Virus record (IMG/VR): IMGVR_UViG_3300021375_001810
DNA length: 64,000 nt
DNA from: a virus
Strand: one strand, 5' to 3'
The first letter of the stretch is position 1. Every line of letters begins with the position of its first letter. The notes beneath the pieces are model-generated. The model saw only the letters and a list, made by a program, of their open reading frames with translations. It had not been told where the DNA came from and did not search any database. Shown here piece after piece: positions 13,259-41,556 of this stretch. A program made the position numbers and the translations under genes.

Positions 13259-13270
13259 TTTTGTTATAAT
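13242..13270 (+). promoter_or_regulatory. sigma70-type promoter TTGACA-N17-TATAAT
   Basis: Perfect consensus upstream of iscS. Confidence 0.8.
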
Positions 13271-14508: not shown

Positions 14509-14518
14509 GGAAATTATT

Positions 14519-17407: not shown

Positions 17408-17897
17408 AAGCCCAGATCCGTGGTTAGAAAAAACAGTAAAAGAGTTTGATTTTAATGTATTAGATGCTAAGTCTATTGCAGAAGAAATGATTACACTTAT
17501 GACTACAGAAGGCGGAATTGGACTTAGTGCTAACCAAGTTGCATTAGATGCTCAAATTTTAGTAATGAAACCGCACCTGTTAGAAAATAAAGAACCGTTT
17601 GCAATGATCAATCCTACAATTGAAAGTGTAACAATTAATATGGAAAATATGCCAGAAGGATGTTTAAGTTGGCCTGGGTTAATATTATCGGTAAAACGTC
17701 CTAGAGGAATCATAGTCAAATATCTTGACACAGACGCTAAAGAGTGTATAATAGAATTATACGATTTAGATGCTAGATGTTTTTTACATGAATACGATCA
17801 CTTACAAGGGATTGAATTTGTAGATAGAGTATCGAGATTAAAATTAGATTTAGCTAAGAAAAAAATGAGAAAACAGAGGAAAAAACAGTATGGTTGA
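17394..17897 (+). CDS. def: Peptide deformylase
   Basis: GIGLSANQ, EGCLS, HEYDHLQG. Confidence 0.95.
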   Translation: MKLVKSPDPWLEKTVKEFDFNVLDAKSIAEEMITLMTTEGGIGLSANQVALDAQILVMKPHLLENKEPFAMINPTIESVTINMENMPEGCLSWPGLILSVKRPRGIIVKYLDTDAKECIIELYDLDARCFLHEYDHLQGIEFVDRVSRLKLDLAKKKMRKQRKKQYG

Positions 17898-20133
17898 ACC
17901 AAGTAAGGAACTACAGTTAGTTTTTGATAAAGCAATAAGTGATGCTAAGTCGCTTCAGCATGAGTATGTTACACTGGAGCATATCATGTTTGCCATGCTT
18001 TGTTCTGAGAACTTTTACAATATAGTTCAAGGATACGGAGCAGATCCTGATTTTGTAAAATCAAACTTAGAACATTACCTTAAAGAAAAACTTGGTGATA
18101 TTAAAACTGAAGAAACAAAATATAAGCCAAAGAAAACATCATCTGTAGAACGTGTTCTTAATAGAGCATTTACACAAGTGTTATTTAGTGGCCGTCCTGA
18201 AATTACACTTCCTGACGTTATGTTAAGTTTGCTTAGTGAAAAGAAATCAATGGCTACTTACTATCTTGAAGAAGTAGGTATTACAAAAGAAAAATTTGCT
18301 GAATATATTAATTCAGAGTTCGAAGCTGAATACGAAGACGAAGAAATAAGCGGAGCTGCACAAAAGGCTTTACGTGCATTTACTACAAACTTAAATGACG
18401 ATGTTAAAAAGAACAAAGTTGATCCTGTTATTGGGCGAGCTGAAGAACTAGAATCGCTTGCATTGGCACTAGGTCGTAGAAGTAAAAACAATGTTCTTAT
18501 GGTAGGTGATCCTGGTGTAGGTAAAACAGCAATCGCCGAAGGCCTTGCATATAACATCGTTAATGACAATGTACCTGATTTCTTAAAAGAATTTAGTGTG
18601 TACAATCTTGACATTGGTAGTATGCTTGCTGGTAGTAAATATCGAGGCGACTTCGAAGAGCGTTTTAAACTTGTATTGACAGGCTTAAAAAGCAAAGGCA
18701 AAACTATTATGTTTATTGACGAAGCTCATATGATGAGTGGAGCAGGAGCTGCAGGTAGCAATAGTGCAAACGACTTAGCAAACATGCTAAAGCCTGCTCT
18801 TGCTAAAGGTAACATTAAAGTTGTTGCGTCAACTACGTGGGAAGAATATCGTAAATATTTTGAAAAGGACCGTGCATTAATGCGTAGGTTCCAACGTGTA
18901 ACAATTGACGAGCCTAGTAATGAAGTCACTAAAGATATTTTGCGTGGTATTAAGAAATACTATGAGGACTATCATGCAACTACTATTACAGACTCAGCAA
19001 TTGATGCGGCTGTAAAATTAAGTGTAAAGTATCAATCAGATAAGAAATTACCTGATAAAGCAATTGACTTGCTTGATGTAGCATGTTCAAGATTTAAACT
19101 GTCTAATACTCCTGAAGGAGAGCGTACAGTTAGCGAAGAAGAAGTACAATTTGAACTTAGTAAAATGATTAACATTCCAACTGAACAAGTTGCTGAAAAA
19201 GAATCTGGAAACTTAGTTAATCTTGATAAAAATATTAAGAAAGTTGTATATGGGCAAGACACTGCTGTAGACGAAGTTGTTGATAAGATACTTGTTAGTC
19301 AAGCAGGACTAAAGTCAGAAGATAAGCCTGTGGGTTCATTTGTGTTTATGGGACCAACTGGTACTGGTAAAACAGAAACAGCAAAAGCACTATCAAACGA
19401 ATTAGGTGTTAAACTTGTTAGATTTGATATGAGTGAATATCAAGAAAAACATGCTGTAGCAAAACTAATTGGTTCTCCTCCAGGTTATGTAGGACACGAA
19501 GAAAATGCAGGTTTGTTAATTACAAAACTTCAAGAAAATCCTAACTGTGTATTACTACTAGACGAGATCGAAAAAGCACACCCTGATGTTTCACAACTGT
19601 TGTTACAAATTATGGACAACGGTAAAGTTACTGGTTCAAATGGTAAAGAGGCAGACGCCCGTAATAGCATTATTATCCTTACAACTAACTTAGGTGCTAA
19701 ACAAGCAGAAAAGAATTCAATCGGATTTGGTGACGAACAAGAAGAAGTTTACGAAGATACTGAATTGAAAAAGTTCTTTGCTCCAGAGTTTAGAAACAGA
19801 CTTGACGGTGTAATTACATTTAACAAACTTGGTAAACCTGTAATGATGAAAATTGTTGGCAAGTTTCTTGTTGAACTTAAAAATATGGTTAAGGACAAAG
19901 GAGTTGTTATTAACATTACAGATGAAGCACTAGACTACTTAGTGGATAAAGGCTTCGATCCAAAGATGGGGGCAAGGCCATTACAACGTGTTATTGATAA
20001 AGAAATTAAAAGACCTTTATCAAGAGAATTGTTATTCGGTAAATTAAAAACTGGTGGAACACTAACAATCGACATTGTAAACGGTGAGGTCTCTCTAAAT
20101 GTATTAGAGGAATCGACAGTTGAAAACACATGA
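17890..20133 (+). CDS. clpA: Clp protease ATPase subunit ClpA
   Basis: Clp N domain, two AAA modules (GDPGVGKT, GPTGTGKT), IGF ClpP-docking loop, no ClpB M-domain. Confidence 0.92.
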   Translation: MVEPSKELQLVFDKAISDAKSLQHEYVTLEHIMFAMLCSENFYNIVQGYGADPDFVKSNLEHYLKEKLGDIKTEETKYKPKKTSSVERVLNRAFTQVLFSGRPEITLPDVMLSLLSEKKSMATYYLEEVGITKEKFAEYINSEFEAEYEDEEISGAAQKALRAFTTNLNDDVKKNKVDPVIGRAEELESLALALGRRSKNNVLMVGDPGVGKTAIAEGLAYNIVNDNVPDFLKEFSVYNLDIGSMLAGSKYRGDFEERFKLVLTGLKSKGKTIMFIDEAHMMSGAGAAGSNSANDLANMLKPALAKGNIKVVASTTWEEYRKYFEKDRALMRRFQRVTIDEPSNEVTKDILRGIKKYYEDYHATTITDSAIDAAVKLSVKYQSDKKLPDKAIDLLDVACSRFKLSNTPEGERTVSEEEVQFELSKMINIPTEQVAEKESGNLVNLDKNIKKVVYGQDTAVDEVVDKILVSQAGLKSEDKPVGSFVFMGPTGTGKTETAKALSNELGVKLVRFDMSEYQEKHAVAKLIGSPPGYVGHEENAGLLITKLQENPNCVLLLDEIEKAHPDVSQLLLQIMDNGKVTGSNGKEADARNSIIILTTNLGAKQAEKNSIGFGDEQEEVYEDTELKKFFAPEFRNRLDGVITFNKLGKPVMMKIVGKFLVELKNMVKDKGVVINITDEALDYLVDKGFDPKMGARPLQRVIDKEIKRPLSRELLFGKLKTGGTLTIDIVNGEVSLNVLEESTVENT

Positions 20134-27270: not shown

Positions 27271-29940
27271 TTGAGTTACGTAGACGCACTATTTGATCGC
27301 GACTCTGACATTATCAGAGTTGTCGAACGCAAAGATGGAAAAAGACATTTCCATGAATATCAAGCAAAATATACATTTTACTATAAAGACCCTCGCGGTA
27401 AGTATAAGAGCGTTTATGGCGATCCTTTAAGTCGTATTGTTTGTAAGAATACAAAAGACTTTCGAAAAGAAGTAGCAATTAATCGAGACAAACAACTTTT
27501 TGAAAGCGACATCAATCCTATTTTCCAATGTTTAAGCGAAAACTATCTTAACCAAGATGCTCCTAAACTAAACATTGCTTTCTTTGATATTGAGACAGAC
27601 TTTGATCCAGAGCGTGGATTTGCCGATCCTGCTGATCCATTTATGCCTATTACTTCTATATCTGTATACTTACAGTGGTTAGAAACAATGGTGTGTTTAG
27701 CAGTTCCGCCTAAGACACTTACAATGGAACAAGCTGAAAAAGAACTAGAAGGTATTGATAATGTAATGCTGTTTGAACAAGAAAGTGAAATGATTGATAC
27801 TTTCTTAACACTAATTGAAGATGCTGATATTTTGTCAGGTTGGAACAGTGAAGGTTATGATATTCCGTATACTGTAAACAGAACTAGTCGTGTACTAAGC
27901 AAAGACGACACTAGACGTTTTTGTCTGTGGGGCCAGTTACCTAAAAAACGTGAATATGAAAAGTATGGCAAATCAGCTGTAACCTTTGACCTAATAGGTA
28001 GAGTGCATTTAGATAGTTTAGAATTATATCGTAAATACACATATGAAGAACGACACACATATAGACTTGATGCCATTGGCGAAATCGAAGTTGGTGAAAA
28101 CAAAGTCCCTTATGAAGGCACTTTGGACCAGTTGTACAACAATGACTTTAGAAAGTTCATCGAATACAACATACAAGATACCGCACTACTGGACAAGTTG
28201 GACAAAAAACTAAGATTTATTGATCTTAGTAACGAACTTGCACACGCAAATACTGTTTTGCTACAGACCACAATGGGTGCTGTTGCTGTTACAGAACAAG
28301 CGATTGTAAACGAAGCACATCACAGAGGACTACAAGTTCCTAACAGACCTAAGCGAGATGACGAAAACACACAAGCCGCTGGTGCATATGTAGCATTTCC
28401 GAAAAAAGGATTGCATAAATGGATTGCATCAATGGATTTGAATTCACTGTATCCGTCAGTAATTCGTGCATTGAATATGGCACCCGAAACTATTATTGGA
28501 CAAATACGTCCTGAGATGTCAGATGCTCGTGTACAAGAAGATATGGGCTTAAAGAAAAAGTCGTTTGCAGGAAGTTGGGAAGGACGTTTTAGTACAGAAG
28601 AATATGAAGCAGTCATGGAACAGAAACGTGACGTTGCTCTTACTGTTGACTTTGAAAACGGACAGACTGAAGTGTTTAGTGGTGCTGAACTGTACAAGAT
28701 TATTTTTGACAATAACAATCCATGGATGCTTAGTGCTAATGGTACAATCTTTACAACAGAGTTTGAAGGTGTTATTCCGGGTATTCTTGCAAGATGGTAT
28801 AGTGAACGTAAAGACTTACAAGCACAACTTAAGAAAGCAAAAGATGCCGGTAATGCTGTTGAAACAGAATATTGGGATAAGCGACAGTTAGTTAAAAAGA
28901 TTAACTTAAACAGTTTGTATGGTGCTATTCTTAATCCTGGTTGTAGGTTCTTTGATAAACGTATTGGTCAATCAACAACACTAACAGGTCGTACTATTGT
29001 TAAACACATGAGTGCAGAAGTTAACAAAGTTATTACAGGCACATATGACCATGTTGGTGAAGCAATGATATATGGTGATACTGACTCTTGTTACTTTAGT
29101 GCTTATCCAATCTTAAAAAATGACATTGACGCAGGAAAGATTCCTTGGGATAAAGATAATGTAATTACCCTTATGGATCAGGTGTGCGAAAAAGCAAATA
29201 CAACGTTTGGCGACTTTATGATGAAAGCATTTCATTGTCCAAAGAGCCGTTCAGATGTTATTGCTGCAGGACGTGAAATTATTGCACAGTCTGGGTTATA
29301 TATTACTAAGAAGCGTTATGCGGCATTAGTTATTGACAACGAAGGCTTTAGAACAGATATTGACGGTAAAGCAGGTAAGGTTAAAGCAATGGGCTTAGAC
29401 TTACGTAGATCAGATACACCTGTGTTTATGCAAGAGTTCTTAAGTGAGATATTACTTATGGTACTAACAGACGTACCGCAAGATGAAATACTTGAACGTA
29501 TTACTGTATTTAGAAAAGAATTCAGTGAACGTCCTGGTTGGGAAAAAGGTAGTCCGAAACGTGCAAACAAAGTAGGTCACTATAAGCGATTAGAAGAAAA
29601 GCAAGGTAAGGCAAATATGCCAGGCCATGTACGGGCAAGCATTAACTGGAATACGCTGAAGCGTATGAACGGAGACAAATACTCACAAGAGATTGTTGAC
29701 GGTATGAAAGTTATTGTTTGTAAACTAAAACAAAACCCTTTAGGATATACAAGTGTTGCTTATCCAACTGATGAGCTAAGACTTCCTGAATGGTTTAAGG
29801 ACCTGCCATTTGACGATGCGGCAATGGCAGAAACTATTATTGATAATAAGTTAGACAACTTAATTGGTGTGTTAGATTATCCTTTAGAAGATACTAAACG
29901 TAATAATACATTCAATAGTTTGTTTGACTTCGGAGAATAA
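27271..29940 (+). CDS. Family-B DNA polymerase with 3'-5' exonuclease
   Basis: FDIET, GWNSEGYD, YNIQD, DLNSLYPS, KINLNSLYG, YGDTDS, KKRY; TTG start with SD AGGAG. Confidence 0.97.
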   Translation: MSYVDALFDRDSDIIRVVERKDGKRHFHEYQAKYTFYYKDPRGKYKSVYGDPLSRIVCKNTKDFRKEVAINRDKQLFESDINPIFQCLSENYLNQDAPKLNIAFFDIETDFDPERGFADPADPFMPITSISVYLQWLETMVCLAVPPKTLTMEQAEKELEGIDNVMLFEQESEMIDTFLTLIEDADILSGWNSEGYDIPYTVNRTSRVLSKDDTRRFCLWGQLPKKREYEKYGKSAVTFDLIGRVHLDSLELYRKYTYEERHTYRLDAIGEIEVGENKVPYEGTLDQLYNNDFRKFIEYNIQDTALLDKLDKKLRFIDLSNELAHANTVLLQTTMGAVAVTEQAIVNEAHHRGLQVPNRPKRDDENTQAAGAYVAFPKKGLHKWIASMDLNSLYPSVIRALNMAPETIIGQIRPEMSDARVQEDMGLKKKSFAGSWEGRFSTEEYEAVMEQKRDVALTVDFENGQTEVFSGAELYKIIFDNNNPWMLSANGTIFTTEFEGVIPGILARWYSERKDLQAQLKKAKDAGNAVETEYWDKRQLVKKINLNSLYGAILNPGCRFFDKRIGQSTTLTGRTIVKHMSAEVNKVITGTYDHVGEAMIYGDTDSCYFSAYPILKNDIDAGKIPWDKDNVITLMDQVCEKANTTFGDFMMKAFHCPKSRSDVIAAGREIIAQSGLYITKKRYAALVIDNEGFRTDIDGKAGKVKAMGLDLRRSDTPVFMQEFLSEILLMVLTDVPQDEILERITVFRKEFSERPGWEKGSPKRANKVGHYKRLEEKQGKANMPGHVRASINWNTLKRMNGDKYSQEIVDGMKVIVCKLKQNPLGYTSVAYPTDELRLPEWFKDLPFDDAAMAETIIDNKLDNLIGVLDYPLEDTKRNNTFNSLFDFGE

Positions 29941-30054: not shown

Positions 30055-30249
30055 ATGGAATGGGTATTAGTATACATCACTCTTACATTTCACGGTCATC
30101 CAATAGCTGAAGAACAGGGTCGTTTTGACTCAATGGTTGAGTGCTTTAAGGCTAGAGAATACTTATCTTTAGAACTAGGTAGTACTGATGGATATTATCC
30201 TGTAGGCTCACAGGCTGTGTGTGTAACAAACTTAAAGGAAATGCACTAA
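30055..30249 (+). CDS. Hypothetical protein
   Basis: 64 aa, MEWVLVYI...F.SM.EC pattern. Confidence 0.55.
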   Translation: MEWVLVYITLTFHGHPIAEEQGRFDSMVECFKAREYLSLELGSTDGYYPVGSQAVCVTNLKEMH

Positions 30250-30665
30250 TGGATAGAGTAGGATTCACATGTAGTACATTTGATTTATTACATGCAGGTC
30301 ATGTACAAATGTTACGTGAAGCAAAAGAACAATGTGATTATCTAATTGTTGGATTGCAAGTTGATCCAAGTATGGACAGACCTGAAAAGAACTGTCCTAT
30401 ACAAACTATTGTTGAACGATATACTCAATTAAAAGCAGTAGGATATGTAGACGAAATCATTCCTTACGGAACTGAACAAGACCTAGAAGATATTTTAAGT
30501 ATGTATACCATACATGTACGTATCCTAGGCGAAGAATATAGAGATAAAGAGTTTACCGGCAGAGATATCTGCAGAAAACGTGATATTGAAATATTCTTTA
30601 ACAAACGAGATCATAGGTTTAGTTCGAGCGACCTACGAAAACGTGTTTCTGACAGACAGAAATAA
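30249..30665 (+). CDS. TagD-like (glycerol-3-phosphate) cytidylyltransferase
   Basis: TFDLLHAGH, CDYLIVGL, YVDEIIPY, RDHRFSSSDLR. Confidence 0.88.
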   Translation: MDRVGFTCSTFDLLHAGHVQMLREAKEQCDYLIVGLQVDPSMDRPEKNCPIQTIVERYTQLKAVGYVDEIIPYGTEQDLEDILSMYTIHVRILGEEYRDKEFTGRDICRKRDIEIFFNKRDHRFSSSDLRKRVSDRQK

Positions 30666-30674
30666 AATTAATGC

Positions 30675-30703
30675 TTGACAAAAACCTAAATATACTTTAT
30701 AAT
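30675..30703 (+). promoter_or_regulatory. Composite promoter TTGACA-N17-TATAAT with late TAAATA in spacer
   Basis: ttgacaaaaacctaaatatactttataat; upstream of clamp-dpdA. Confidence 0.8.
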
Positions 30704-30727: not shown

Positions 30728-31456
30728 ATGAAAGATATATTACAAGACGTAGTCGCACACACACATGCACTAGGTTTTCTATCACTGGTTAAAGTTAACG
30801 CTGAAACAGAAACGGCTATTGATGCAATGGCAGAAGACAGATCAGTTATTTTAACAGCAACTACACATAACCCTGTATCAGAGTTTATTGGAACGTTTGG
30901 TATGCCTAACTTAGACAAACTAAGTTTGCATTTAAAGAATCCAGAATACAAAGATAACGCAAAACTTGAAGTAGTTCAAGCAGACCGCAATGGCGAAACT
31001 ATCCCAACACACATCCACTTTGAAAATGCAACAGGTGACTTTGAAAATGATTATCGCTTTATGAACAAAGCAATCATTGAAGAAAAACTAAAGACTGTTA
31101 AGTTTAAAGGTGCATCATGGGACGTAACATTTGAACCAAGCATGGCAAGTATTGCACGTATGAAGTTACAAAGTGCTGCACACGCCGAAGAGCCTACATT
31201 TAATGTAACAACTACTGATGGTAATCTTGTGTTTAGTTTTGGTGATGCAAGTACACACGCAGGTAGTTTTATCTTCCAACATGCTGTTGAAGGTGAATTA
31301 AGTCATACTTGGAGTTGGCCTGTAGCACAAGTACAGTCTATCTTAAACTTAGATGGTAATATTACAATGAGTATTTCCAATCAAGGTGCTATGATGATTA
31401 CTGTAGACAGTGGCTTAGCAAAATACGATTACATTTTGCCAGCACAGAGTAAGTAG
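30728..31456 (+). CDS. Probable DNA sliding clamp (gp45/PCNA-like)
   Basis: 242 aa (clamp protomer size), alpha/beta pattern, DAMAEDRSV and C-terminal YDYILPA recall PCNA; PolB and RFC loader in window. Confidence 0.6.
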   Translation: MKDILQDVVAHTHALGFLSLVKVNAETETAIDAMAEDRSVILTATTHNPVSEFIGTFGMPNLDKLSLHLKNPEYKDNAKLEVVQADRNGETIPTHIHFENATGDFENDYRFMNKAIIEEKLKTVKFKGASWDVTFEPSMASIARMKLQSAAHAEEPTFNVTTTDGNLVFSFGDASTHAGSFIFQHAVEGELSHTWSWPVAQVQSILNLDGNITMSISNQGAMMITVDSGLAKYDYILPAQSK

Positions 31457-31459
31457 AAT

Positions 31460-33025
31460 ATGCGTAAAGACTTAACAGCAGAACAAAATGACTATGCACA
31501 TTTTCTTCCAGCATTAAGTGGTTTTTATGCAACGTATGTAGGCAAGCAGAGATTTCTAGATCCTGTAAAAGGTCCATATATTGAAGATGCTCGTATACCT
31601 GCTAATTGGAATAATGGTGTAGAAAGTCTAAACTATCTTAATAAAAAAGAAGGTGCGTTTACATACAAGTGGACACTATATTCAGCAGGTCATGCTGACT
31701 TAGATACAAATAAAATCGTCCCAAAAGAAGATATGGTGCGTAATAGAGACAGAGCAAACACATGGATACTTGGAGACTCAGGTGGTTTCCAAATTGGTAA
31801 AGGTGTTTGGGAAGGAGACTGGAAAGATCCTAACTGTCCAAAGGCACAAAAGAAACGTGACGGTGTTTTACGTTGGATGGATGCATATATGGACTATGGT
31901 ATGGTCCTTGATATTCCAGCCTGGGTAGCACGTTCACCCGAAGGTGCAAAAGCCACTGGCATTAGTACATATGATGAGGCTGTAAAAGCAACACGTATAA
32001 ACAATGACTATTGGATGAAGCATAGAACAGGTGCTTGTAAATTCTTAAATGTATTACAAGGCGAGAATCATGCTGATGCAGAAGATTGGTATCAGCAAAT
32101 GAAAGACTATTGTGATCCTAACATATATCCAGACAAACATTTTAATGGCTGGGCAATGGGTGGTCAGAATATGTGTGATGTACATTTGGTTCTTAAACGT
32201 CTAGTTGCATTGAGATTCGACGGACTACTGGAACAAGGCGTACATGATGTAATGCACTTCTTAGGTACAAGTAAACTAGAATGGGCTACATTACTAACAG
32301 ACATACAAAGAGCTGTTCGTAAGTATCATAACCCAAACTTTATGGTTACATTTGATTGTGCTAGTCCTTTCCTTGCTACAGCAAACGGGCAAGTATACAT
32401 TCAAAACGAAACACCTGATAGAGGTAAGTGGACTTATCGAATGGTGCCTAGTATAGATGATAAAAAATATGCAACTGATACTAGAACATTCCGCGATGCT
32501 GTATTACAAGACGGTATCTTTAAAAACTTTGAAGATAGTCCAGTAACTGACGGTATGCTTGTAAATGATGTATGTTACTATAAGCCCGGTGATCTAAACA
32601 AAATAGGTAAAGAAGGTAAAACATCTTGGGATTCATTTAGTTATGCAATACAAATGGGTCACAATGTATGGAGTCATATCAATGCTGTACAAGAAGCAAA
32701 CAGACAGTATGATGCAGGTATAACTCCTAAGATGTTAGTAGACGAACGTTTTGATAGAGTTTACTTTAAAGACATAGTCGAAGCAATCTTTATGACAGAT
32801 GATAGAGATGAAGCAAATGCAATTATCGAAGAGTTCAGTAAATTTTGGATGAGCATACCTGGTACTAGAGGTGCTATTGGTAAAAAGACTGTAAATTCTA
32901 GTACATATTTTAACGCATTGTTTGATGTAGAAGAATCGTCACAACAAGAAGAATTAGAAGCTGGCGAATATACTGAAGAACAAGAAAGTAAGTTAGGAGA
33001 ACTTGAGGATGAGCAATTACAGTGA
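31460..33025 (+). CDS. dpdA: DNA 7-deazaguanine transglycosylase (TGT fold, DpdA family)
   Basis: ILGDSGGFQ, MVLDIP, NVLQG, GWAMGG, MHFLG, TFDCAS, HN motifs of the TGT barrel; lacks the tRNA-TGT CxCxxC Zn site; folE/queE nearby. Confidence 0.85.
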   Translation: MRKDLTAEQNDYAHFLPALSGFYATYVGKQRFLDPVKGPYIEDARIPANWNNGVESLNYLNKKEGAFTYKWTLYSAGHADLDTNKIVPKEDMVRNRDRANTWILGDSGGFQIGKGVWEGDWKDPNCPKAQKKRDGVLRWMDAYMDYGMVLDIPAWVARSPEGAKATGISTYDEAVKATRINNDYWMKHRTGACKFLNVLQGENHADAEDWYQQMKDYCDPNIYPDKHFNGWAMGGQNMCDVHLVLKRLVALRFDGLLEQGVHDVMHFLGTSKLEWATLLTDIQRAVRKYHNPNFMVTFDCASPFLATANGQVYIQNETPDRGKWTYRMVPSIDDKKYATDTRTFRDAVLQDGIFKNFEDSPVTDGMLVNDVCYYKPGDLNKIGKEGKTSWDSFSYAIQMGHNVWSHINAVQEANRQYDAGITPKMLVDERFDRVYFKDIVEAIFMTDDRDEANAIIEEFSKFWMSIPGTRGAIGKKTVNSSTYFNALFDVEESSQQEELEAGEYTEEQESKLGELEDEQLQ

Positions 33026-33209
33026 CGAACACGAAAAAATAGCGAATCAATTAGATATTTTATATAAGCGTCATAGAGAACTTGACGATAACATAATTAA
33101 TCGTTATAATAAGTTTGCAACCGACACTGAAATTAATATGTTAAAGACCAAAAAGTTATGGTTCAAAGACGAAATATATAGATTAGAAAAGAGGCTGAAA
33201 GAGACATGA
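33009..33209 (+). CDS. DUF465/YdcH-like coiled-coil protein
   Basis: LYKRHRELDDNI...LKTKKLWFKDEI. Confidence 0.65.
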   Translation: MSNYSDEHEKIANQLDILYKRHRELDDNIINRYNKFATDTEINMLKTKKLWFKDEIYRLEKRLKET

Positions 33210-33727
33210 AACGAGATTATGATGAAGGCGTTTTAGAAACACCTGTTTTATTTGTAGGTGTAGAAGTTGAAAAGACCCCGGCATTTGGTATGCAAACACT
33301 GTTTGTAGACGGCATCCAAGACATCGAAACTATACTTGAATACTATAACAAGTTAGAGTGTAAGCACATATTCTTTGGTGCAAATCATTCATATAGTCCA
33401 AAAACAGCAGACGAGTTCGAACAGTGGGACAAATACATTTTAGAATTTGTAAAAGAAGGCTACTTATGTAGTTTAGATATTCCAAGTACTATTAACTTAG
33501 AATGGTTCTTAGAAGGCGGATTAGTAGAGTATGATAACTTTATTCCGCAAATACGTGTTGTAGTACCTTATGTGAAACAGTGGAACTATAATACTATGGT
33601 TAAGATTGACGACAAAGACTTTAAAGCAAGTAACCCAGGTGTTTGGTGTCATAGTCTACATGACTTAATGGATAGAGAAAAATTTACCGATTGGGGCAAA
33701 TATGGCCTTGACAAAGTTATTAAATGA
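33206..33727 (+). CDS. Hypothetical protein in dpd cluster
   Basis: 173 aa between dpdA and the QueD paralogue. Confidence 0.7.
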   Translation: MKRDYDEGVLETPVLFVGVEVEKTPAFGMQTLFVDGIQDIETILEYYNKLECKHIFFGANHSYSPKTADEFEQWDKYILEFVKEGYLCSLDIPSTINLEWFLEGGLVEYDNFIPQIRVVVPYVKQWNYNTMVKIDDKDFKASNPGVWCHSLHDLMDREKFTDWGKYGLDKVIK

Positions 33728-33736
33728 AAGTATAAT
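33708..33736 (+). promoter_or_regulatory. sigma70-type promoter TTGACA-N17-TATAAT
   Basis: Perfect consensus; ATG 33744 at expected start site. Confidence 0.75.
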
Positions 33737-33743
33737 ATAAACA

Positions 33744-34211
33744 ATGCAAGAACGTTATTACGACTACATGGTACGTAGAATGAGAGAGGAAGATAATAAA
33801 ATGGCTGAAGAAAAAGCAATAAATAATGCACAAAAGAGTATATGGGTAACCTTTAGAAAAGAAGGTATTCATAAATATCCGGCGGCACTAGATGACCCAA
33901 AACTTGCAACAGGCGATGACATGGACGTTTCGTTCCTTGGTTATCCTCATCGTCATATTTTCCACTTCAGGGTGCGTATCGAAGTGTTCCATGACGATAG
34001 AGACATCGAATTCATCCAGTTCAAAAGATGGCTCGAAAAGCTCTATAATGATTCCGACGGTGCGGTGCTCGTACTAGATTACAAATCGTGTGAAATGATC
34101 GCAGACGATCTATATTCACAAATTTCAGCAAAGTATCCCGGCCGCTTTGTTGAGATTGATGTCTCCGAAGATGGAGAGAATGGCTGTCAAATCTTTTACC
34201 CAAAACCCTAA
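33744..34211 (+). CDS. QueD/PTPS T-fold paralogue, DpdL-like (putative CDG decarboxylase)
   Basis: EGIH, LGYPHRHIF (LxxxHRHxF instead of QueD CxxxHGH), DRDIEF, SCEMIA, VSEDGENG. Confidence 0.7.
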   Translation: MQERYYDYMVRRMREEDNKMAEEKAINNAQKSIWVTFRKEGIHKYPAALDDPKLATGDDMDVSFLGYPHRHIFHFRVRIEVFHDDRDIEFIQFKRWLEKLYNDSDGAVLVLDYKSCEMIADDLYSQISAKYPGRFVEIDVSEDGENGCQIFYPKP

Positions 34212-34237
34212 ATGCTATTATCAAAAGGAAAACTACA

Positions 34238-34447
34238 ATGGCAAAGAACTTTCCGAAAGTTATGGATATCTATGACGATCTTGACAAGTTTCGCGACTAC
34301 TGTCGCTTTGAAGGTAAAGTCTTTAATGAAAAAGACTTATACAAAGAAGGTGCACCTGTATGGGAAGCATATAAAAAATACCAAGGCTGGCTTCGTGCAA
34401 AAGCTCGCAATGCAGGACGTAACAATATAAACAACCGGAGGAACTAA
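34238..34447 (+). CDS. Hypothetical protein
   Basis: 69 aa; AAGGA SD; coupled to glycosyltransferase. Confidence 0.65.
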   Translation: MAKNFPKVMDIYDDLDKFRDYCRFEGKVFNEKDLYKEGAPVWEAYKKYQGWLRAKARNAGRNNINNRRN

Positions 34448-35511
34448 TGACTATCTATATCGTAGACATTGAAGCAGTTGATACACGCTATACTAAACAA
34501 TGGAAAGAACATCTTCCAAAGCAACTGCAACGAGCTACGAATGAAAAAGTAGAAGTTGTTAGTGGTGGAGATACTCCTCAGGCTACAACACCCGGGGCGT
34601 TTCTTAACTTCGGCGGTACAAATGTTTATAAAAGCAAACAGTTAGAAAAAATAGGGGAAATGTTTTGTAACGGAACTATTAATGATGGTGATTATTTCCT
34701 ATACACTGATGCTTGGAATCCTACTGTTATACAACTTCGTTACATGGCAGAACTATTAGGCGTTGATATTTGTGTTGGCGGCTTGTGGCATGCTGGCAGT
34801 TATGATCCACAAGATTTTCTAGGCAGACTTATAGGAGATAAACCTTGGGTCAGACATGCAGAATATTCAATGTTTGAATGTTACGATGACAATTTTTTTG
34901 CAAGTGAATTTCATTGGGATATGTTTGCAGAAACGTTTGCACTCGAAATGGGTGTAGTTGATCAAACTAAAATGAAACGTGTAGGATGGCCTATGGAATA
35001 TCTAAAGAACAGTTTAGATAGTTACAAAGGTATGGAGAAGAAAGATTTAATCTTATTCCCGCATCGAGTTGCTCCTGAAAAACAAGTTGATATTTTTAGA
35101 GACTTAAAAGAACGTTTACCTCAATATGAATTTGTAGTATGTCAAGAACAACAACTTACAAAAAATGAATATCACAATTTACTAGGCGAAGCTAAAATTG
35201 TGTTTAGTGCTAACCTACAAGAAACATTAGGTATTAGTTGGTATGAAGGAGCATTAGTTAATGCTATACCTATGGTGCCAGATAGACTAAGTTACAGTGA
35301 AATGGCACTGCCTGAATTTAAATACGACAGCAAATGGACTGAAGACTTTGATGCATACTTACATCACAAAGACAAAGTCGTTGCCCAAATAGTTGAATAC
35401 ATAGAAAACTATGAGTCTTTCCTTCCAAGTATTGCAAAACAAGTATCTAAACTTAATAAAGAATTCTTTAGCGGTAAAGACTTGTATACGGTGATTAGTA
35501 ATGAACGATGA
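34447..35511 (+). CDS. GT-B (GT4-like) glycosyltransferase
   Basis: FPHRVAPEK, ETLGISWYE (E-x7-E), PMVPDRLSY. Confidence 0.8.
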   Translation: MTIYIVDIEAVDTRYTKQWKEHLPKQLQRATNEKVEVVSGGDTPQATTPGAFLNFGGTNVYKSKQLEKIGEMFCNGTINDGDYFLYTDAWNPTVIQLRYMAELLGVDICVGGLWHAGSYDPQDFLGRLIGDKPWVRHAEYSMFECYDDNFFASEFHWDMFAETFALEMGVVDQTKMKRVGWPMEYLKNSLDSYKGMEKKDLILFPHRVAPEKQVDIFRDLKERLPQYEFVVCQEQQLTKNEYHNLLGEAKIVFSANLQETLGISWYEGALVNAIPMVPDRLSYSEMALPEFKYDSKWTEDFDAYLHHKDKVVAQIVEYIENYESFLPSIAKQVSKLNKEFFSGKDLYTVISNER

Positions 35512-35881
35512 TACAGAAACATATACAATTGACCTTGGATCAGGTGCAGATACCTTACAAACAATTTATACTAATGACACATTGTATACTGATAACAGTA
35601 TTACTATAAACACTTCTAGTTGGGATGATAGTTTTAGTACTGATCCTTCATCAATTTATACTACTGGCATAAACAATGGTAATGTTAGTATCGAAGGTGA
35701 ATTAAAAGTAGGCGGTGTAGACGTTATGCAGTCTATTAAAGATCTACAACGTGTACTAGGTGTTGTAAGTAGAGATATTGAAAAAGAAGAAAAGTATGCA
35801 GGACTAAAACGTGCCGCAGAAGCATACGAACGCGAACTAGCAAAAATTGAAACATTAGAAACTATAAAGGGTTCGACCTAA
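35501..35881 (+). CDS. Hypothetical protein
   Basis: 126 aa, Thr/Ser-rich N-terminus, coiled C-terminus. Confidence 0.6.
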   Translation: MNDDTETYTIDLGSGADTLQTIYTNDTLYTDNSITINTSSWDDSFSTDPSSIYTTGINNGNVSIEGELKVGGVDVMQSIKDLQRVLGVVSRDIEKEEKYAGLKRAAEAYERELAKIETLETIKGST

Positions 35882-36345
35882 TGCTAAACTTTTTTAAAGG
35901 ACGTAAACGTGTAATTAAAGACAGAGACAGTAACGAACCATACTTAGTTCGCTACTATCTTTTCTTAAAAGACAGAAAGAACTTTCCGTTTAATATCACA
36001 TTACACAAAGTTTTAAAAAGCGATGAAGACGTTCTCCATGATCATCCGTGGAGTTATGCAACATTAATTCTTAAAGGTGGCTATTGGGAAAATCTTCCTA
36101 TATATGCTCGTGAAGGACATGTATGCGGTTCCCATAAAGTATGGAGAGGACCAGGACACTTTCGATATCGTAAGTCAGACGACTTACACTTTTTAGAATT
36201 AGAAAAAGACGCCAATGGAAATGAGATTCCATGTTGGAGTTTATTTTATATGGGTAAGAAAGCCAAGAGTTGGGGATTTTTACCTTGGATTAAAAATACC
36301 GGTTATCGGTGGATAGATAGTGAGACATACCTCACTAAGGATTAA
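35881..36345 (+). CDS. Cupin-like metalloprotein
   Basis: LHDHPWSYATLILKGGYWE and downstream His. Confidence 0.6.
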   Translation: MLNFFKGRKRVIKDRDSNEPYLVRYYLFLKDRKNFPFNITLHKVLKSDEDVLHDHPWSYATLILKGGYWENLPIYAREGHVCGSHKVWRGPGHFRYRKSDDLHFLELEKDANGNEIPCWSLFYMGKKAKSWGFLPWIKNTGYRWIDSETYLTKD

Positions 36346-36346
36346 T

Positions 36347-36619
36347 ATGATGAGTCAATATAATGATGTTGTTGAAAGGCAAAGAGTGAAATTGGAAGCA
36401 GAAGTTTGGGCTAAACAAGTCAAATCTATACATGCACATACTACAAAAAGTATGTGGTATGAAACTAATCCTGAGGATTTTGAACACGGGCCTGTAACTG
36501 ATGTTGAATACAATAGTGGTGTTATAGAAAGAACACTTGCAAATGGTGACAAAAGAACAATTGGCAAGAGATTAAGTTCAGATGAACTAGTTGATGAATA
36601 TAAAAGGAATTCTGTTTGA
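36347..36619 (+). CDS. Hypothetical protein
   Basis: Start reassigned to ATG 36347 after AAGGA. Confidence 0.6.
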   Translation: MMSQYNDVVERQRVKLEAEVWAKQVKSIHAHTTKSMWYETNPEDFEHGPVTDVEYNSGVIERTLANGDKRTIGKRLSSDELVDEYKRNSV

Positions 36620-37203
36620 AACATACTAATTACTTTAATGGCGACATACAAACATATGACGACATATTTACAGAAGAGCAACTAAATGCAATAGCGGCTG
36701 AAGTTACAACACTGAACTATGGCTATGGAAGTATTGATCAAATGTCATTACAAAACTTTCAAGCACCTACTGGGATGGTTAACGTAGGTAAAGGTAACGA
36801 CAACTGGTATAAAGTAGTTGAAGACTATTGCCGTAAAAACATTCCGGAACTAAAAGATATTCCAGAAGGCAGGCATCACGTTAATTTATTTGGACCACGT
36901 GAAAATGCAATGTATCACGAAGATTCCGAAGACGGGTGGACTGCTATTTTTTATGCAAACCAGTATTGGGACATAAACGAAGGCGGCGAAACTAAATTTA
37001 TAATGCCCGCTGATATGTTAGATGATAGTAAAGAAATTAAAACGGACACATTAGATTATCCTGTTGTACTTTCAATAGCACCTATACCAGGAAGGTTAGT
37101 GATATTTAAAGGTAACTTACTACATTCAGCAACTGGGTTTAGAAATACATGGCGTTTTACACCTACTATACAATTTTATAAGACCGGAGATAAAGAAGAA
37201 TGA
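36616..37203 (+). CDS. 2OG-Fe(II) oxygenase
   Basis: HED, W...GGET, PGRLVIF...HSA...R. Confidence 0.8.
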   Translation: MKHTNYFNGDIQTYDDIFTEEQLNAIAAEVTTLNYGYGSIDQMSLQNFQAPTGMVNVGKGNDNWYKVVEDYCRKNIPELKDIPEGRHHVNLFGPRENAMYHEDSEDGWTAIFYANQYWDINEGGETKFIMPADMLDDSKEIKTDTLDYPVVLSIAPIPGRLVIFKGNLLHSATGFRNTWRFTPTIQFYKTGDKEE

Positions 37204-37757
37204 AGAAACATTATTACACATGGGGACACGTTGAAAAAATGTGTATCGATATCGCAATGCAGATGCAGAAAGATAACTGGAAGCCAGACTATATTGTAGG
37301 TATTACACGTGGTGGTAATGTGCCTGCTACAATACTGTCGCATATGTTAGGCGTTCGTTGTGAAGCACTTAAAGTAGCATTACGTGATGGAGATAGTCAT
37401 CAGGAAAGCAACTGTTGGATGTCTAGTGATGCGTTTGGTTACGTTGACGAAGAAGAACGTGCTGTAACTAAAAGCCGTTGGGACGTTAACAAACGTAAAA
37501 ATATTTTAATTGTAGACGATATTAACGATACAGGTGCAACACTTGAGTGGATCAAACAAGATTGGCAGGCAAGTTGTTTACCTAACGAAAGTAGTTGGGA
37601 TACTGTATGGAATAAAAATGTAAGATTTGCTACACTAACTGAAAACCTTGCAAGTAATTTTGACGGTGTTAATTATTCGGCACACGAAGTTAACAAAGCA
37701 GATGAAGATATTTGGTTAGTTTATCCTTGGGAAATAGTAGGCACGTATGATGCATGA
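37200..37757 (+). CDS. Purine phosphoribosyltransferase (Gpt-like)
   Basis: IVGITRGG, LIVDDINDTGATL, WLVYPWE. Confidence 0.88.
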   Translation: MKKHYYTWGHVEKMCIDIAMQMQKDNWKPDYIVGITRGGNVPATILSHMLGVRCEALKVALRDGDSHQESNCWMSSDAFGYVDEEERAVTKSRWDVNKRKNILIVDDINDTGATLEWIKQDWQASCLPNESSWDTVWNKNVRFATLTENLASNFDGVNYSAHEVNKADEDIWLVYPWEIVGTYDA

Positions 37758-38121
37758 TACATTAGAAAAAGCTCAGCAAGATGGCAGAGCACCATGGAGT
37801 AAAGTTTTTTTAGACACTAGAGACTTTGTAGTGTTTGAAGATAAGTATCCGGTAACCGAAGGACACTTATTGATAGTACCAAAAGAAGCAACACAAGACG
37901 AAATTAATAAATGTTTTAAGTTTGCTTTATCAATGGGAAATGACAATGTTGAGTCAGATAAGACTACTATAACAGGTTATAACATTGGCTTAAATATAGG
38001 TACTAGTGCGGGACAGACAGTTATGTATCCGCATGTACATTTAATCTTCCGTCGTGATGGAGACATGGAAGATCCGAAAGGCGGCGTACGGGGCGTCATT
38101 CCATCTAAACAAAAATATTAA
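37747..38121 (+). CDS. HIT-family hydrolase
   Basis: DKYPVTEGHLLIVPK, AGQTVMYPHVHLI. Confidence 0.88.
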   Translation: MMHDTLEKAQQDGRAPWSKVFLDTRDFVVFEDKYPVTEGHLLIVPKEATQDEINKCFKFALSMGNDNVESDKTTITGYNIGLNIGTSAGQTVMYPHVHLIFRRDGDMEDPKGGVRGVIPSKQKY

Positions 38122-38132
38122 GGAAAGGAACT

Positions 38133-38339
38133 ATGGACTTGAAGGAACAAATGATTAAAGCGGCAAGGCTACACGCTGAAGCGGAGATAGAATTGCACAA
38201 AACTAATATTGAAGTATACATGCAAAAAGTTGTAGGCATTGGAGAACATTCTGATATTATCGAAACGATACAAAAAGAATTAGATCAAATGGCTACAGCA
38301 CATGATCGCTTAGAAATGTTAGAAAAGTATTTTGCATAA
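38133..38339 (+). CDS. Hypothetical helical protein
   Basis: VGIGEHSDIIE motif; SD AGGA. Confidence 0.65.
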   Translation: MDLKEQMIKAARLHAEAEIELHKTNIEVYMQKVVGIGEHSDIIETIQKELDQMATAHDRLEMLEKYFA

Positions 38340-38344
38340 AATAC

Positions 38345-38373
38345 TTGACAAAAACCTAAATACAATGTATAAT
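38345..38373 (+). promoter_or_regulatory. Composite promoter TTGACA-N17-TATAAT with late TAAATA in spacer
   Basis: ttgacaaaaacctaaatacaatgtataat; upstream of folE-queE. Confidence 0.8.
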
Positions 38374-38435
38374 GTAAATTATATTGTACATTGTATTTTA
38401 AACGGCAATCCACTGCCTTAACATCGGAGATTAAA

Positions 38436-39125
38436 ATGGGTAAAGTAAGACAAATTAGAGCAAAGTTAGAAGATGCTGGCATTCGTTATTGGGCGGGTGA
38501 CAACATTTCAAAAGTGCTACAAAAACACGACAAAGAAGAATTAATTAACGAAGCAACTAGAGCTTTTGAAGGTGTGTTAGATGCACTGTTAATTGATCGA
38601 ATTAATGATCCTAACAGCCAAGGTACAGCAAGGCGTCTTGCTAAAATGTACTACAATGAAATTATGGCAGGACGTTATGATCCAGCACCAAGTGCAACAT
38701 CATTTCCAAACGATTCAACAGACCGTTATGAAGGTATGCTAGTAGTGCGTTCGGAACTAAAAAGTATGTGTTCACATCATCACCAGCCAGTAGCAGGTGT
38801 TGCATACATTGGTATTATTGCCGCAGACAAATTAATTGGTCTAAGCAAGTACACACGTATTGCACAGTGGTGTGCTAGACGTGGAACACTACAAGAAGAA
38901 CTTGCAAACGAAATTGCACGTGAAATTCAAAAAGTTACAGATGCAGAACACTTAGGTGTTTATATTCAAGCAACACACGGTTGTTGTGAGAATAGAGGCA
39001 TTATGGCAACTAGCAGTCTTACACAAACAACTGTGTTGCGTGGTGCGTTTAAGGATGACGCTGGTACAAAGAAAGAGTTCTTTGACAATATTAAATTACA
39101 ACAAGAATATGCTTGTGGAAAGTAG
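38436..39125 (+). CDS. folE: GTP cyclohydrolase I
   Basis: SMCSHH, IGLSK, RRGTLQE, HGCCENRG; start reassigned to ATG 38436 after GGAG. Confidence 0.95.
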   Translation: MGKVRQIRAKLEDAGIRYWAGDNISKVLQKHDKEELINEATRAFEGVLDALLIDRINDPNSQGTARRLAKMYYNEIMAGRYDPAPSATSFPNDSTDRYEGMLVVRSELKSMCSHHHQPVAGVAYIGIIAADKLIGLSKYTRIAQWCARRGTLQEELANEIAREIQKVTDAEHLGVYIQATHGCCENRGIMATSSLTQTTVLRGAFKDDAGTKKEFFDNIKLQQEYACGK

Positions 39126-39130
39126 ATAAT

Positions 39131-40015
39131 ATGAAATTAAGATATTCAGAAGCGTTTTATAGCGTACAAGGTGAAGGCAAGTTTGTAGGTGTGCCTAGTG
39201 TATTCCTACGTACATTCGGTTGCAACTTTCGTTGTATGAACTTTGGACTAGAACGTGGGACACCTGCTAGAGCAGACGGTGTAAAACATAATCCCGAAGT
39301 AAAAGAATTACTTGACAGCAATATAATTAACACTGTTGAAAAATTTACAGACTTACCTGTAATACATACAGGCTGTGATACATATGCAAGTATCTATCCA
39401 GAATTTAAAAAGTTTATGATGGATAGAACTGTAGATGAAGTAGTTGAACACTTATTGAGTTTGACTCCTAACGGACAGTGGACATTAGATAATGGACAAG
39501 ATATTCATTTAATATTCACAGGCGGAGAACCTTTGTTAGGGTGGCAAAGATTCTATACAGAGCTATTAGAACACCCGCGTATGAAGGACTTAAAAAATGT
39601 TACATTTGAAACAAATACTTCGCAGAAGTTACGACCTGATTTTAGAGACTATCTTAACAATCAAGACAGATTTGAAGTCACTTGGAGTTGTTCCCCAAAA
39701 CTTAGTGTCAGCGGAGAACGCTGGGAGGATGCTATTAACCCTGATATTGCTAGTGAGTATTTCAGTGTTCTTAATAGTAAACTTTATCTTAAGTTTGTTG
39801 TGGCTGATAGCATTGACGTTGAAGAAGTTAAAAGAGCTGTTGCTGAGTATAGGAGCGCCGGGGTCGAGTGTCCGGTATATCTTATGCCGCTCGGAGGACG
39901 CTCTGAAGAATATAAACTTAACGTTAAAGAAGTGGCTGAATTATGTATGGCGCAAGGATGGAGGTTTACACCAAGACTCCATATCGACCTTTTCGGCAAT
40001 GCATGGGGGACTTAG
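39131..40015 (+). CDS. queE: 7-carboxy-7-deazaguanine synthase (radical SAM)
   Basis: FYSVQGEG, FLRTFGCNFRC...GCDT, TGGEP, FETN, SPKL, RLH. Confidence 0.9.
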   Translation: MKLRYSEAFYSVQGEGKFVGVPSVFLRTFGCNFRCMNFGLERGTPARADGVKHNPEVKELLDSNIINTVEKFTDLPVIHTGCDTYASIYPEFKKFMMDRTVDEVVEHLLSLTPNGQWTLDNGQDIHLIFTGGEPLLGWQRFYTELLEHPRMKDLKNVTFETNTSQKLRPDFRDYLNNQDRFEVTWSCSPKLSVSGERWEDAINPDIASEYFSVLNSKLYLKFVVADSIDVEEVKRAVAEYRSAGVECPVYLMPLGGRSEEYKLNVKEVAELCMAQGWRFTPRLHIDLFGNAWGT

Positions 40016-40569: not shown

Positions 40570-41556
40570 ATGGCAACTTATGTATTAGTAGATACAGCAA
40601 ACACTTTTTTTAGAGCTCGACACGTAGTTCGTGGCGACTTAGATACTAAAGTAGGCATGGCTTTACACATCACACTTAGTGGTGTTAAAAAGGCATGGCA
40701 AGACTTTGAAGCAGATCATGTTGTATTTTGTTTAGAAGGACGTAGCTGGCGTAAAGACTTTTACGAACCTTACAAGCGTAATAGACAAGTTACACGTGAT
40801 AAGATGACTGTTACTGAGTCTGAAGAAGATAAAGTGTTTTGGGAGATCTTTGACGAGTTTAAAAACTTTGTAGATACTAAGACTAATTGTACAGTTATGC
40901 AACATCCGCAATTAGAAGCAGATGATCTTATTGCAGGTTGGGTACAATCACATCCTAATGATAATCATGTTATTATTAGTACTGACGGTGACTTTGCACA
41001 ACTTATTGCACCTAATGTAAAACAGTACAATGGCATTCAAGACGTTACTATTACACATGAAGGTTACTTTGATAAGAAAGGTAATCCTGTAATTGACAAG
41101 AAAACTAAAGAGGCTAAGCCTGCACCTGACCCTGCATTTATGTTGTTTGAAAAGTGTATGCGTGGCGACACTAGTGACAACGTGTTTAGTGCATATCCAG
41201 GTGTACGTAAAAAAGGCACTAAGAACAAAGTAGGTCTTATAGAAGCGTTTGAAGACAAAGACAGCAAAGGCTTTAATTGGAATAACATGATGTTACAACG
41301 TTGGACTGATCATGAAGGTACTGAACATCGTGTACTAGATGATTATACTCGTAATGTTGTACTATGTGACTTAACAGCACAACCTACAGACATTAGAGAG
41401 ATAATTAATAACACTATTGAAGAAAACGCAAAGCCCAAAGAAGTACAACAAGTAGGTATGCGTCTTATGAAATTTTGTGCTAAGTGGGATATGCAACGTA
41501 TTGCAGATCAAGCACAATACTTTGCAGAACCGCTAAATGCAAGGTATCCGGAGTAA
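40570..41556 (+). CDS. RNase H / 5'-3' flap exonuclease (T4 rnh-like)
   Basis: LVD, SWRKDFY..YKRNR, EADD, STDGDF.QL, GDTSDN. Confidence 0.9.
   Translation: MATYVLVDTANTFFRARHVVRGDLDTKVGMALHITLSGVKKAWQDFEADHVVFCLEGRSWRKDFYEPYKRNRQVTRDKMTVTESEEDKVFWEIFDEFKNFVDTKTNCTVMQHPQLEADDLIAGWVQSHPNDNHVIISTDGDFAQLIAPNVKQYNGIQDVTITHEGYFDKKGNPVIDKKTKEAKPAPDPAFMLFEKCMRGDTSDNVFSAYPGVRKKGTKNKVGLIEAFEDKDSKGFNWNNMMLQRWTDHEGTEHRVLDDYTRNVVLCDLTAQPTDIREIINNTIEENAKPKEVQQVGMRLMKFCAKWDMQRIADQAQYFAEPLNARYPE

Follow-up and report, generated by a model that had tools for sequence, protein, structure and literature searches.

The subject of this analysis is a glycosyltransferase (GT) gene at positions 34447-35511 (354 aa) of a 64,000-nucleotide stretch of viral DNA, IMG/VR record IMGVR_UViG_3300021375_001810, the whole of which is referred to here as the window. 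The window has a GC content of about 36%, and its genes lie on the + strand over roughly the first 48 kb; an identical GT protein is on record on a 339-kb contig, and close relatives of the protein stem from ocean samples of JGI, ENA and Tara, which makes the source of the window a marine jumbo phage. The GT gene lies in a block of 7-deazaguanine (dpd) genes, all on the + strand, between the genes for a family-B DNA polymerase (27271-29940) and a 5'-3' exonuclease (40570-41556). Across phages we found a strict association of this GT with the QueD paralogue DpdL and a long type of DpdA-like transglycosylase, a new result that defines a second, testable type of DpdL system. On sequence comparison and structure modelling, we consider the chances about even that this "long DpdA + DpdL + GT" system is a distinct one making a glycosylated 7-deazaguanine in virion DNA.

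In the window the long, DSGGFQ-type DpdA-like DNA transglycosylase (31460-33025, 521 aa), recognised by its LGDSGGFQ motif and by Foldseek, lies upstream of DpdL (33744-34211), a proposed decarboxylase of 7-carboxy-7-deazaguanine (CDG). The sequence LGYPHRHIF in this DpdL corresponds to the LxxxHRHxF signature, which replaces the QueD motif CxxxHGH; both of its histidines, H69 and H71, are invariant, and R70 almost so. After a small open reading frame (ORF) at 34238-34447 comes the GT gene, and further downstream lie FolE, a GTP cyclohydrolase I (38391-39125; PF01227, 2.3e-38), and the radical-SAM CDG synthase QueE (39113-40015; NCBIfam QueE models, down to 4.5e-13). Neither QueD nor QueC turned up in those ORFs of the window that were scanned; a phage-type QueD (CxxxHGY) is present in the metagenome-assembled genome (MAG) that holds a 335-kb contig of a relative.

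The window contains four perfect TTGACA-N17-TATAAT sites, where 0.04 would be expected. These sigma-70 promoters precede the genes for IscS and NifU (13242-13270; IscS 13291-14508, NifU 14468-14944) and, all three on the + strand, the pair of sliding-clamp-like gene and DpdA (30675-30703), the run from DpdL through the GT to a HIT-family protein (33708-33736), and FolE-QueE (38345-38373), the spacers of the sites at 30675 and 38345 being near-identical (AAAACCTAAATA...). From DpdL to the HIT gene the ORFs abut or overlap, and neither a comparable promoter nor a convincing + strand terminator was found in this interval. The single promoter, the abutting ORFs and the lack of an intervening terminator together indicate that the GT is very probably co-transcribed with DpdL, as had been proposed in an earlier reading made from the letters of the window alone (the sequence-only reading). 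One promoter class is thus common to the whole pathway, including the Fe-S assembly for QueE, and the copy before IscS/NifU suggests a regulon supplying Fe-S clusters to this enzyme. The IscS and NifU genes are themselves adjoined by genes for DnaJ and ClpB-like chaperones (16577-17407 and 17890-20133).

The GT ORF matched nothing in Pfam, PHROG or NCBIfam, and a phmmer search against PDB returned nothing useful. Its AlphaFold2 model, built from a 45-sequence alignment (pLDDT 96, pTM 0.93), shows the two Rossmann-like domains of GT-B topology (Foldseek probability 1.0), and its best Foldseek matches are GT4/GT5 enzymes of this fold, namely glycogen synthase, BshA, MshA and PglA. Compared by VIA over residues 1-354, the model scored Z 26.6 with sucrose-phosphate synthase (6kih), 26.0 with BshA (6n1x), 23.3 with PglA (8dqd), and 23.1 with both GlgM and LmbT. 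The E-x7-E motif corresponds to E259 and E267 in ETLGISWYE; among the 45 sequences E267 is invariant and E259 at least 90% conserved, as is each of R207, K212 and H115. By analogy, the basic pair R207/K212 together with H115 would bind the nucleoside diphosphate (NDP) sugar. The N-terminal half contains a conserved aromatic and acidic set (W90, Q65, D82, D88, D123, E139 and D147).

Membership of this enzyme class was also visible at the family level. The family profile matched the solved GT 8xsg (E 1.5e-5) across the E-x7-E region, and two other members passed Pfam gathering scores, the one from Synechococcus phage BUCT-ZZ01 for Glycos_transf_1/Glyco_trans_1_4 (28.3 vs 27 bits) and a paralogue from a metagenomic clade (27.7 vs 26.4 bits). 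An exhaustive search (E<=1e-3) gave 1174 clusters at 50% identity and more than 8000 at 90%, and the family is common in ocean metagenomes. Fused forms longer than 620 aa were not found, in a search that is weak evidence on this point. The predicted product of 34447-35511 is therefore best described as a GT4-like, retaining-type GT-B glycosyltransferase, probably active, which upholds the GT-B enzyme with an E-x7-E motif named in the sequence-only reading.

Which acceptor such an enzyme would use is less directly indicated by the fold. One explanation is that the GT glycosylates a small pathway metabolite, such as a pterin or deazapurine intermediate or by-product, that does not end up in DNA, the purpose being storage, detoxification or interference with the queuosine or folate metabolism of the host. 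Its closest structural matches (sucrose-phosphate synthase, BshA, GlgM and LmbT) agree with this, as does the fact that DpdL is a pterin- or purine-binding paralogue of QueD and 6-pyruvoyltetrahydropterin synthase (PTPS). The GT family is moreover acidic (median pI 5.6; window GT pI 4.96, net charge -17), which would fit a small-molecule acceptor. A cyanobacterial pterin glucosyltransferase (5zer) is among the structural matches, but its Z of 20.1 is in the generic range and no closer than that of dozens of other GT4 enzymes. We know of no phage use for such a metabolite, and this explanation leaves the joint switching of GT and DpdA type, described below, unaccounted for; we regard it as quite unlikely. 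Known DNA-modifying enzymes also fell in the generic range, the phage HY126 arabinosyltransferase (9iqz) at Z 19.6 and the T4 alpha-glucosyltransferase (AGT, 1y6f) at 19.0. The comparison with the T4 glucosyltransferases that the sequence-only reading had in mind was thus uninformative, T4 AGT being outscored by small-molecule GT4 enzymes (Z 26).

When searched by tblastn in 50,697 phage records, the window GT matched 22. Homologues with 25-48% identity were located among FolE, QueD and QueE genes in Sinorhizobium phage Phosso, Pseudomonas phage PAC2 (PA5oct group), Acidovorax phage ACP17, Xanthomonas phage X1 and Burkholderia phage BCSR5, each time with a DpdL homologue and/or a DpdA-like gene as immediate neighbour. 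In BUCT-ZZ01 a member found with the family profile directly follows DpdL, in a cluster that also has a second GT and a xanthine/guanine phosphoribosyltransferase (XGPRT). A metagenomic member with 26% identity to the window GT is preceded by DpdL and followed, two genes on, by a DSGGFQ protein, and among phage contigs binned into MAGs (62-78% identity) the DpdL-GT pair was present in L101 and was accompanied by an upstream DpdA in L102-L105. Close relatives of the window phage (L101-L107) are included in MAGs labelled Neomarinimicrobiota (a 335-kb contig), Legionellales, Pacearchaeota, Crocinitomicaceae and Erysipelotrichaceae, labels that almost certainly reflect mis-binned viral contigs.

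Together with the window clade, these searches defined eight GT-positive lineages: Phosso, the PA5oct group, ACP17, X1/BUDD, BCSR5, BUCT-ZZ01, a distant metagenomic clade and the window clade itself. In all core-family lineages examined the GT lies zero to three genes from DpdL and/or DpdA. It was near dpd genes in 80 IMG/VR loci, DpdL adjoined it in all of the first 85 loci examined, and in cultured phages the core family occurred only in genomes carrying DpdL, itself present in just 28 of the 50,697 records. A distribution independent of dpdA, which the sequence-only reading had named as the outcome that would count against a role in base modification, was not seen, every core member examined being beside DpdL and/or a DpdA-like gene. 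Even the peripheral copy in phage PhiXhv-15 belongs to a genome with FolE and a DpdA-like gene, the latter a weak match. Since gene order around the GT differs between lineages, its linkage to dpd genes is not frozen synteny. Taken together, the comparative data make a role of the GT in the 7-deazaguanine pathway well supported.

This distribution also bears on the view that the GT is unrelated to nucleic acids, acting on the host envelope, the virion or another protein, and is found near dpd genes only because a block of early genes has been inherited together. Serotype conversion and protein glycosylation are frequent tasks of phage GT4 enzymes, JGI labels some members of the family 'glycosyltransferase involved in cell wall biosynthesis', and the copy in phage PhiXhv-15 is accompanied by GlmS and lies away from dpd genes. 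However, adjacency to dpd genes has been kept through rearrangement in phages of Pseudomonas, Acidovorax, Xanthomonas, Burkholderia, Sinorhizobium and Synechococcus and in marine phages, at 25-48% identity, whereas true passengers of the cluster (the cupin and oxygenase described below) vary even at about 80% identity. The promoter common to GT and DpdL and the perfect correlation of the GT with DpdA type also speak against this view, which we consider improbable.

The correlation emerged when the GT-positive lineages were compared with six DpdL lineages that have no GT, represented by phiST, MA9V-3, Ahp1_CNU-2021, RHph_I1_18, Bakedbeans and D479. In whole-record profile searches, all six GT-negative genomes had a short phiST-type DpdA3 and none had a GT or a long DpdA. 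Conversely, the phiST DpdA3 profile found nothing in GT-positive genomes; Phosso, PAC2, X1, BCSR5, ACP17, BUCT-ZZ01 and a complete 197-kb metagenomic genome all carry a long DSGG[FL]Q DpdA and no DpdA3. Among DpdL phages, GT presence and DpdA type therefore correspond in eight versus six lineages with no exceptions. In a DpdL tree, based on a short alignment and with some long branches, GT-positive and GT-negative lineages were interleaved, PAC2 grouping with Ahp1 (support 97/97) and RHph with X1, ACP17 and BCSR5. This interleaving, combined with the exceptionless match, indicates that the GT and the long DpdA switch together as a module, gained or lost jointly on a common DpdL background.

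The two transglycosylase types also differ at the profile level. By hhalign, the two long sub-groups, that of the window and the ACP17/X1/BCSR5/BUCT-ZZ01 type, are related to each other at 94%, while the probability for the long DpdA against phiST DpdA3 was 4%, with no detectable similarity between these shallow profiles. A transglycosylase identity for the long type is indicated by fold search: all 50 of the best Foldseek matches of the low-confidence model of the window protein are tRNA-guanine transglycosylase (TGT) or DpdA (bacterial DpdA 7ui4), and the top three in VIA are ArcTGT (Z 11.8), DpdA (Z 11.6) and TGT, barely above other TIM barrels. Profiles of the long DpdA searched against PDB sequences found no TGT, so that the likeness comes from fold search only.

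DpdL, the gene common to both system types, showed some variation of its own. In the PA5oct group (L002, 9147-9524) PHFHYF takes the place of HRHxF, so that the signature arginine is not universal. Furthermore DpdL forms the C-terminal part of a longer protein in Bakedbeans (gp176; L089, 7260-8411, 383 aa) and MA9V-3 (L100, 6491-7372, 293 aa), the N-terminal parts of which match no Pfam family. A further idea is that DpdL might be a PTPS-like enzyme feeding QueE another pterin.

Immediately after the GT and a 126-aa ORF, the window contains a cupin (35881-36345) of the PHROG 'cysteine dioxygenase' family (phrog_4786, 2.3e-31; no Pfam match) and, beyond a 99-aa ORF (36320-36619), a 2-oxoglutarate (2OG)-Fe(II) oxygenase (36616-37203; phrog_274 5.8e-19, NCBIfam FlmC 6e-7, Pfam below cut-off at 2e-4) in which HxD...H is visible. 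These matches agree with the two enzymes that the sequence-only reading had placed here. The idea that such oxygenases create the handle for the sugar did not hold up when we compared 54 IMG/VR relatives with 77-98% GT identity that span the interval from GT to FolE (all having the GT by construction). All 54 had a phosphoribosyltransferase (PRTase); the HIT protein was encoded by 40 of them, the cupin by 35 and the 2OG oxygenase by four, and 18 had the bare GT-PRTase-(small ORF)-FolE form. Neither oxygenase was found in the clusters of the other GT-positive lineages. Members of the cupin family turned up in 95 unrelated phage records, chiefly from phages of Mycobacterium and Gordonia, and the nearest relatives of the 2OG oxygenase are generic cyanomyovirus oxygenases. 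These frequencies and absences rule out either enzyme as an obligatory handle-maker. A second 2OG-Fe(II) oxygenase is encoded at 7138-7710, outside the dpd cluster.

A similar picture was obtained for the TagD-like cytidylyltransferase that had been noted just before the clamp-dpdA operon. The gene is indeed present at 30219-30665 and encodes a small RfaE-II/TagD-like nucleotidyltransferase (CTP_transf_like 4.4e-13; best matches RfaE domain II 4.5e-19 and TagD 1e-16, all below cut-off), a possible sugar or polyol activator. No such enzyme was found in the clusters of the other GT-positive lineages; it is specific to the window clade, which rules it out as a conserved donor-maker. Because occupancy of these slots is variable, the oxygenases and the nucleotidyltransferase are not required for the GT reaction. 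On comparative grounds we class the cupin, the 2OG oxygenase and the cytidylyltransferase as optional, clade-specific extras, which may decorate the product in some strains. What survives of the proposal that a sugar or polyol is added to the deazaguanine is thus the tie between the GT and the dpd system, without the oxygenase-made handle.

A hydroxymethyl-pyrimidine acceptor was rejected as well, since among the ORFs scanned the window has ThyX only (8476-9162, outside the dpd cluster; Thy1, 6.5e-43). In line with the earlier statement that no dCMP/dUMP hydroxymethylase is visible, we found no ThyA-type enzyme among the window ORFs scanned, which did not include all small ORFs.

The remaining genes of the cluster are of mixed conservation. 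The xanthine/guanine-type PRTase (37200-37757; Pribosyltran 8.3e-13), conserved in the window clade, is also present in the PA5oct and BUCT-ZZ01 clusters, its most plausible task being salvage of the guanine that base exchange sets free; it is followed by the HIT-family gene (37747-38121; HIT 1.3e-9). The ORF preceding DpdA (30728-31456) has no Pfam match and is sliding-clamp-like by tblastn/jackhmmer matches to the PA5oct-group PCNA and the Phosso clamp. Between DpdA and DpdL are a DUF465 gene (33003-33209) and a gene for a 173-aa protein (33206-33727); the latter has no match in Pfam, PHROG or NCBIfam and only weak glycoside-hydrolase-like leads in the Atlas, and its homologue lies directly before DpdA in ACP17. 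The 126-aa ORF after the GT (35501-35881) is a variable accessory, found in only part of the clade and matching an 86-aa PA5oct-group protein. A megablast search of 33000-39000 against phage records gave no match. Outside the cluster, the - strand carries a single ORF of 2376 aa at 56349-63479.

From these results we infer the following scheme. FolE, QueD and QueE would make CDG, and DpdL, the long DSGG[FL]Q DpdA and the GT would complete the modification system. The GT would transfer a hexose or N-acetylhexosamine from an NDP-sugar onto the 7-deazaguanine moiety, with the free base as the favoured acceptor, and the long DpdA would then insert the sugar-bearing base, so that virion DNA would carry a glycosylated 7-deazaguanine in place of 2'-deoxy-7-deazaguanine (dDG). 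We lean to glycosylation of the free base because the GT family is acidic and because GT presence switches with the type of DpdA; in an alternative order, the DNA would be glycosylated right after base insertion. Extended to all of its carriers, the scheme would have guanine replaced by a glycosylated 7-deazaguanine, with the sugar added before insertion, in the abundant marine jumbo clade and in the PA5oct-like, ACP17, X1-BUDD, BCSR5, Phosso and BUCT-ZZ01 phages, and a second GT or a deacetylase elaborating the sugar in some of them. In this fuller form we advance it tentatively, at somewhat below an even chance.

The alternative order corresponds to an enzyme that acts on DNA after DpdA has inserted 7-deazaguanine (DG) or CDG, in the manner of T4 AGT and BGT or of the HY126 enzyme; its co-variation with the long DpdA would come from the two enzymes docking on each other or on the clamp. 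Phage DNA GTs are GT-B enzymes, those of T4 and HY126 matching the window model at the generic Z values given above, and in the window, PA5oct and Phosso the genes lie behind polymerase and clamp genes. The family is nevertheless acidic overall and closer to small-molecule GT4 enzymes than to known DNA GTs, there is no hydroxyl on dDG in DNA and no conserved hydroxylase to supply one, and for an enzyme with DNA as its only substrate the short DpdA3 ought to do just as well. We therefore judge an enzyme acting on the inserted base unlikely.

As for the sugar, several neighbouring genes offer hints. In BCSR5 a PIG-L/LmbE-type deacetylase is encoded two genes upstream of the GT (E 4.7e-5, below the Pfam cut-off), and in PhiXhv-15 a BshB-like deacetylase and GlmS adjoin it. 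Because of these neighbours and the closeness of the GT to BshA, N-acetylglucosamine (GlcNAc) is a candidate sugar in the BCSR5 and PhiXhv-15 lineages, where the analogy suggests GlcNAc transfer followed by deacetylation. Next to the GT, X1 (L004, 6332-6865) and BCSR5 (L005, 6137-6784) encode a PP-loop (PAPS-reductase-like) protein, which might be a QueC-like carboxyl-activating enzyme that couples CDG with an amino sugar; a short SDR 'epimerase' is encoded in PA5oct. Two GTs per dpd cluster are present in BUCT-ZZ01 (L099, 4385-5728 and 7376-8542) and in the metagenomic clade L094/L095, which has a second paralogue (L095, 2736-3953 and 7974-9092), hinting at a disaccharide or at two acceptor sites. 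More speculatively, the acceptor could be the CDG carboxyl, the exocyclic N2 or, by C-glycosylation, the pyrrole ring.

Several observations weigh against a glycosylated 7-deazaguanine in DNA. GT4 enzymes use very varied acceptors. 7-Deazaguanine lacks an obvious O or N handle, and the GT-positive lineages have no conserved hydroxylase in common. The peripheral PhiXhv-15/Ep032 subfamily (25% identity over 64% of the query), the sole outlier of the family, has a GT that is not adjacent to dpd genes in the PhiXhv-15 genome, which is without DpdL. The model of the window long DpdA is poor (pLDDT 55), and the match between GT and DpdA type gives about 3e-4 in a Fisher test by hand, but the lineages are not independent. 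Published reconstitution also has to be considered. Cui et al. (NAR 2023; PMC10516641), who defined the DpdL signature LxxxHRHxF and DpdA3 and measured dDG in phiST, found no dDG when dpdL and dpdA of ACP17 were expressed without the GT in E. coli, and suggested that enzymes might be missing. The dpdL and dpdA of phiST, a phage without the GT, also failed in E. coli (PMC10516641), and the ACP17 failure therefore does not point specifically to the GT.

The phiST DpdL/DpdA3 system (PMC10516641) is the nearest relative of the one proposed here, sharing FolE, QueE, DpdL with the LxxxHRHxF signature and a TGT-fold base-exchange enzyme; no QueC was seen among the window ORFs scanned, and the phage-type QueD is in the genome of a relative. 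It differs in having a short DpdA3, no GT and plain dDG as its product, whereas the window-type system has a long DpdA (about 400-540 aa), always a GT4-like GT and often a PRTase. The main text of that paper does not contain 'glycosyl' (PMC10516641), and the literature searched yielded no report of DNA with a glycosylated deazaguanine, nor of a connection between a GT and DpdL. In favour of the scheme, PA5oct DNA is resistant at several G-containing restriction sites. Full dDG substitution has been reported for another vibriophage.

Among other systems, BshA/MshA with BshB/MshB resemble the GT family in structure, BshA being the second-best match (Z 26.0, rmsd 2.8 over 304 residues), and in the clustering of GT homologues with PIG-L/LmbE-type deacetylases in BCSR5 and PhiXhv-15 and with GlmS in PhiXhv-15. 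The window GT has about 12% identity to BshA, its cluster has no deacetylase, and malate and inositol phosphate can certainly be dismissed as its acceptor. The phage DNA GTs T4 AGT and the HY126 5-hydroxycytosine arabinosyltransferase share with it the GT-B fold, phage origin and a place among DNA-metabolism genes. They match it only at a generic Z of about 19, and require a hydroxylated pyrimidine from a dedicated hydroxymethylase or hydroxylase, none of which is conserved with the window GT family. Finally, in animals tRNA queuosine is glycosylated to mannosyl-Q and galactosyl-Q, a 7-deazaguanine derivative of a nucleic acid being sugared by a dedicated glycosyltransferase; there, however, the nucleic acid is RNA and the sugar is on the cyclopentenediol of queuosine, which the window pathway cannot make.

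7-Deazaguanine DNA modifications are a recent and growing class with eight derivatives known. To our knowledge none of these carries a sugar, and every known DNA glycosylation is on a hydroxylated pyrimidine. If correct, our proposal would add a new DNA base and a pre-insertion route of hypermodification unlike known DNA glycosylation. The combination of a GT4-like GT, a long DpdA and DpdL provides a simple genomic marker for phages to test, and phages carrying it (PA5oct, ACP17, X1, BCSR5, Phosso and BUCT-ZZ01) are already in culture. The GT could also be the "missing enzyme" whose absence may have blocked reconstitution of the ACP17 pathway. For the phages themselves, a sugar-bearing guanine analogue would have consequences for evasion of restriction and CRISPR, for how the newly discovered anti-deazaguanine glycosylases and END nucleases recognise it, and for the sequencing of such viromes.

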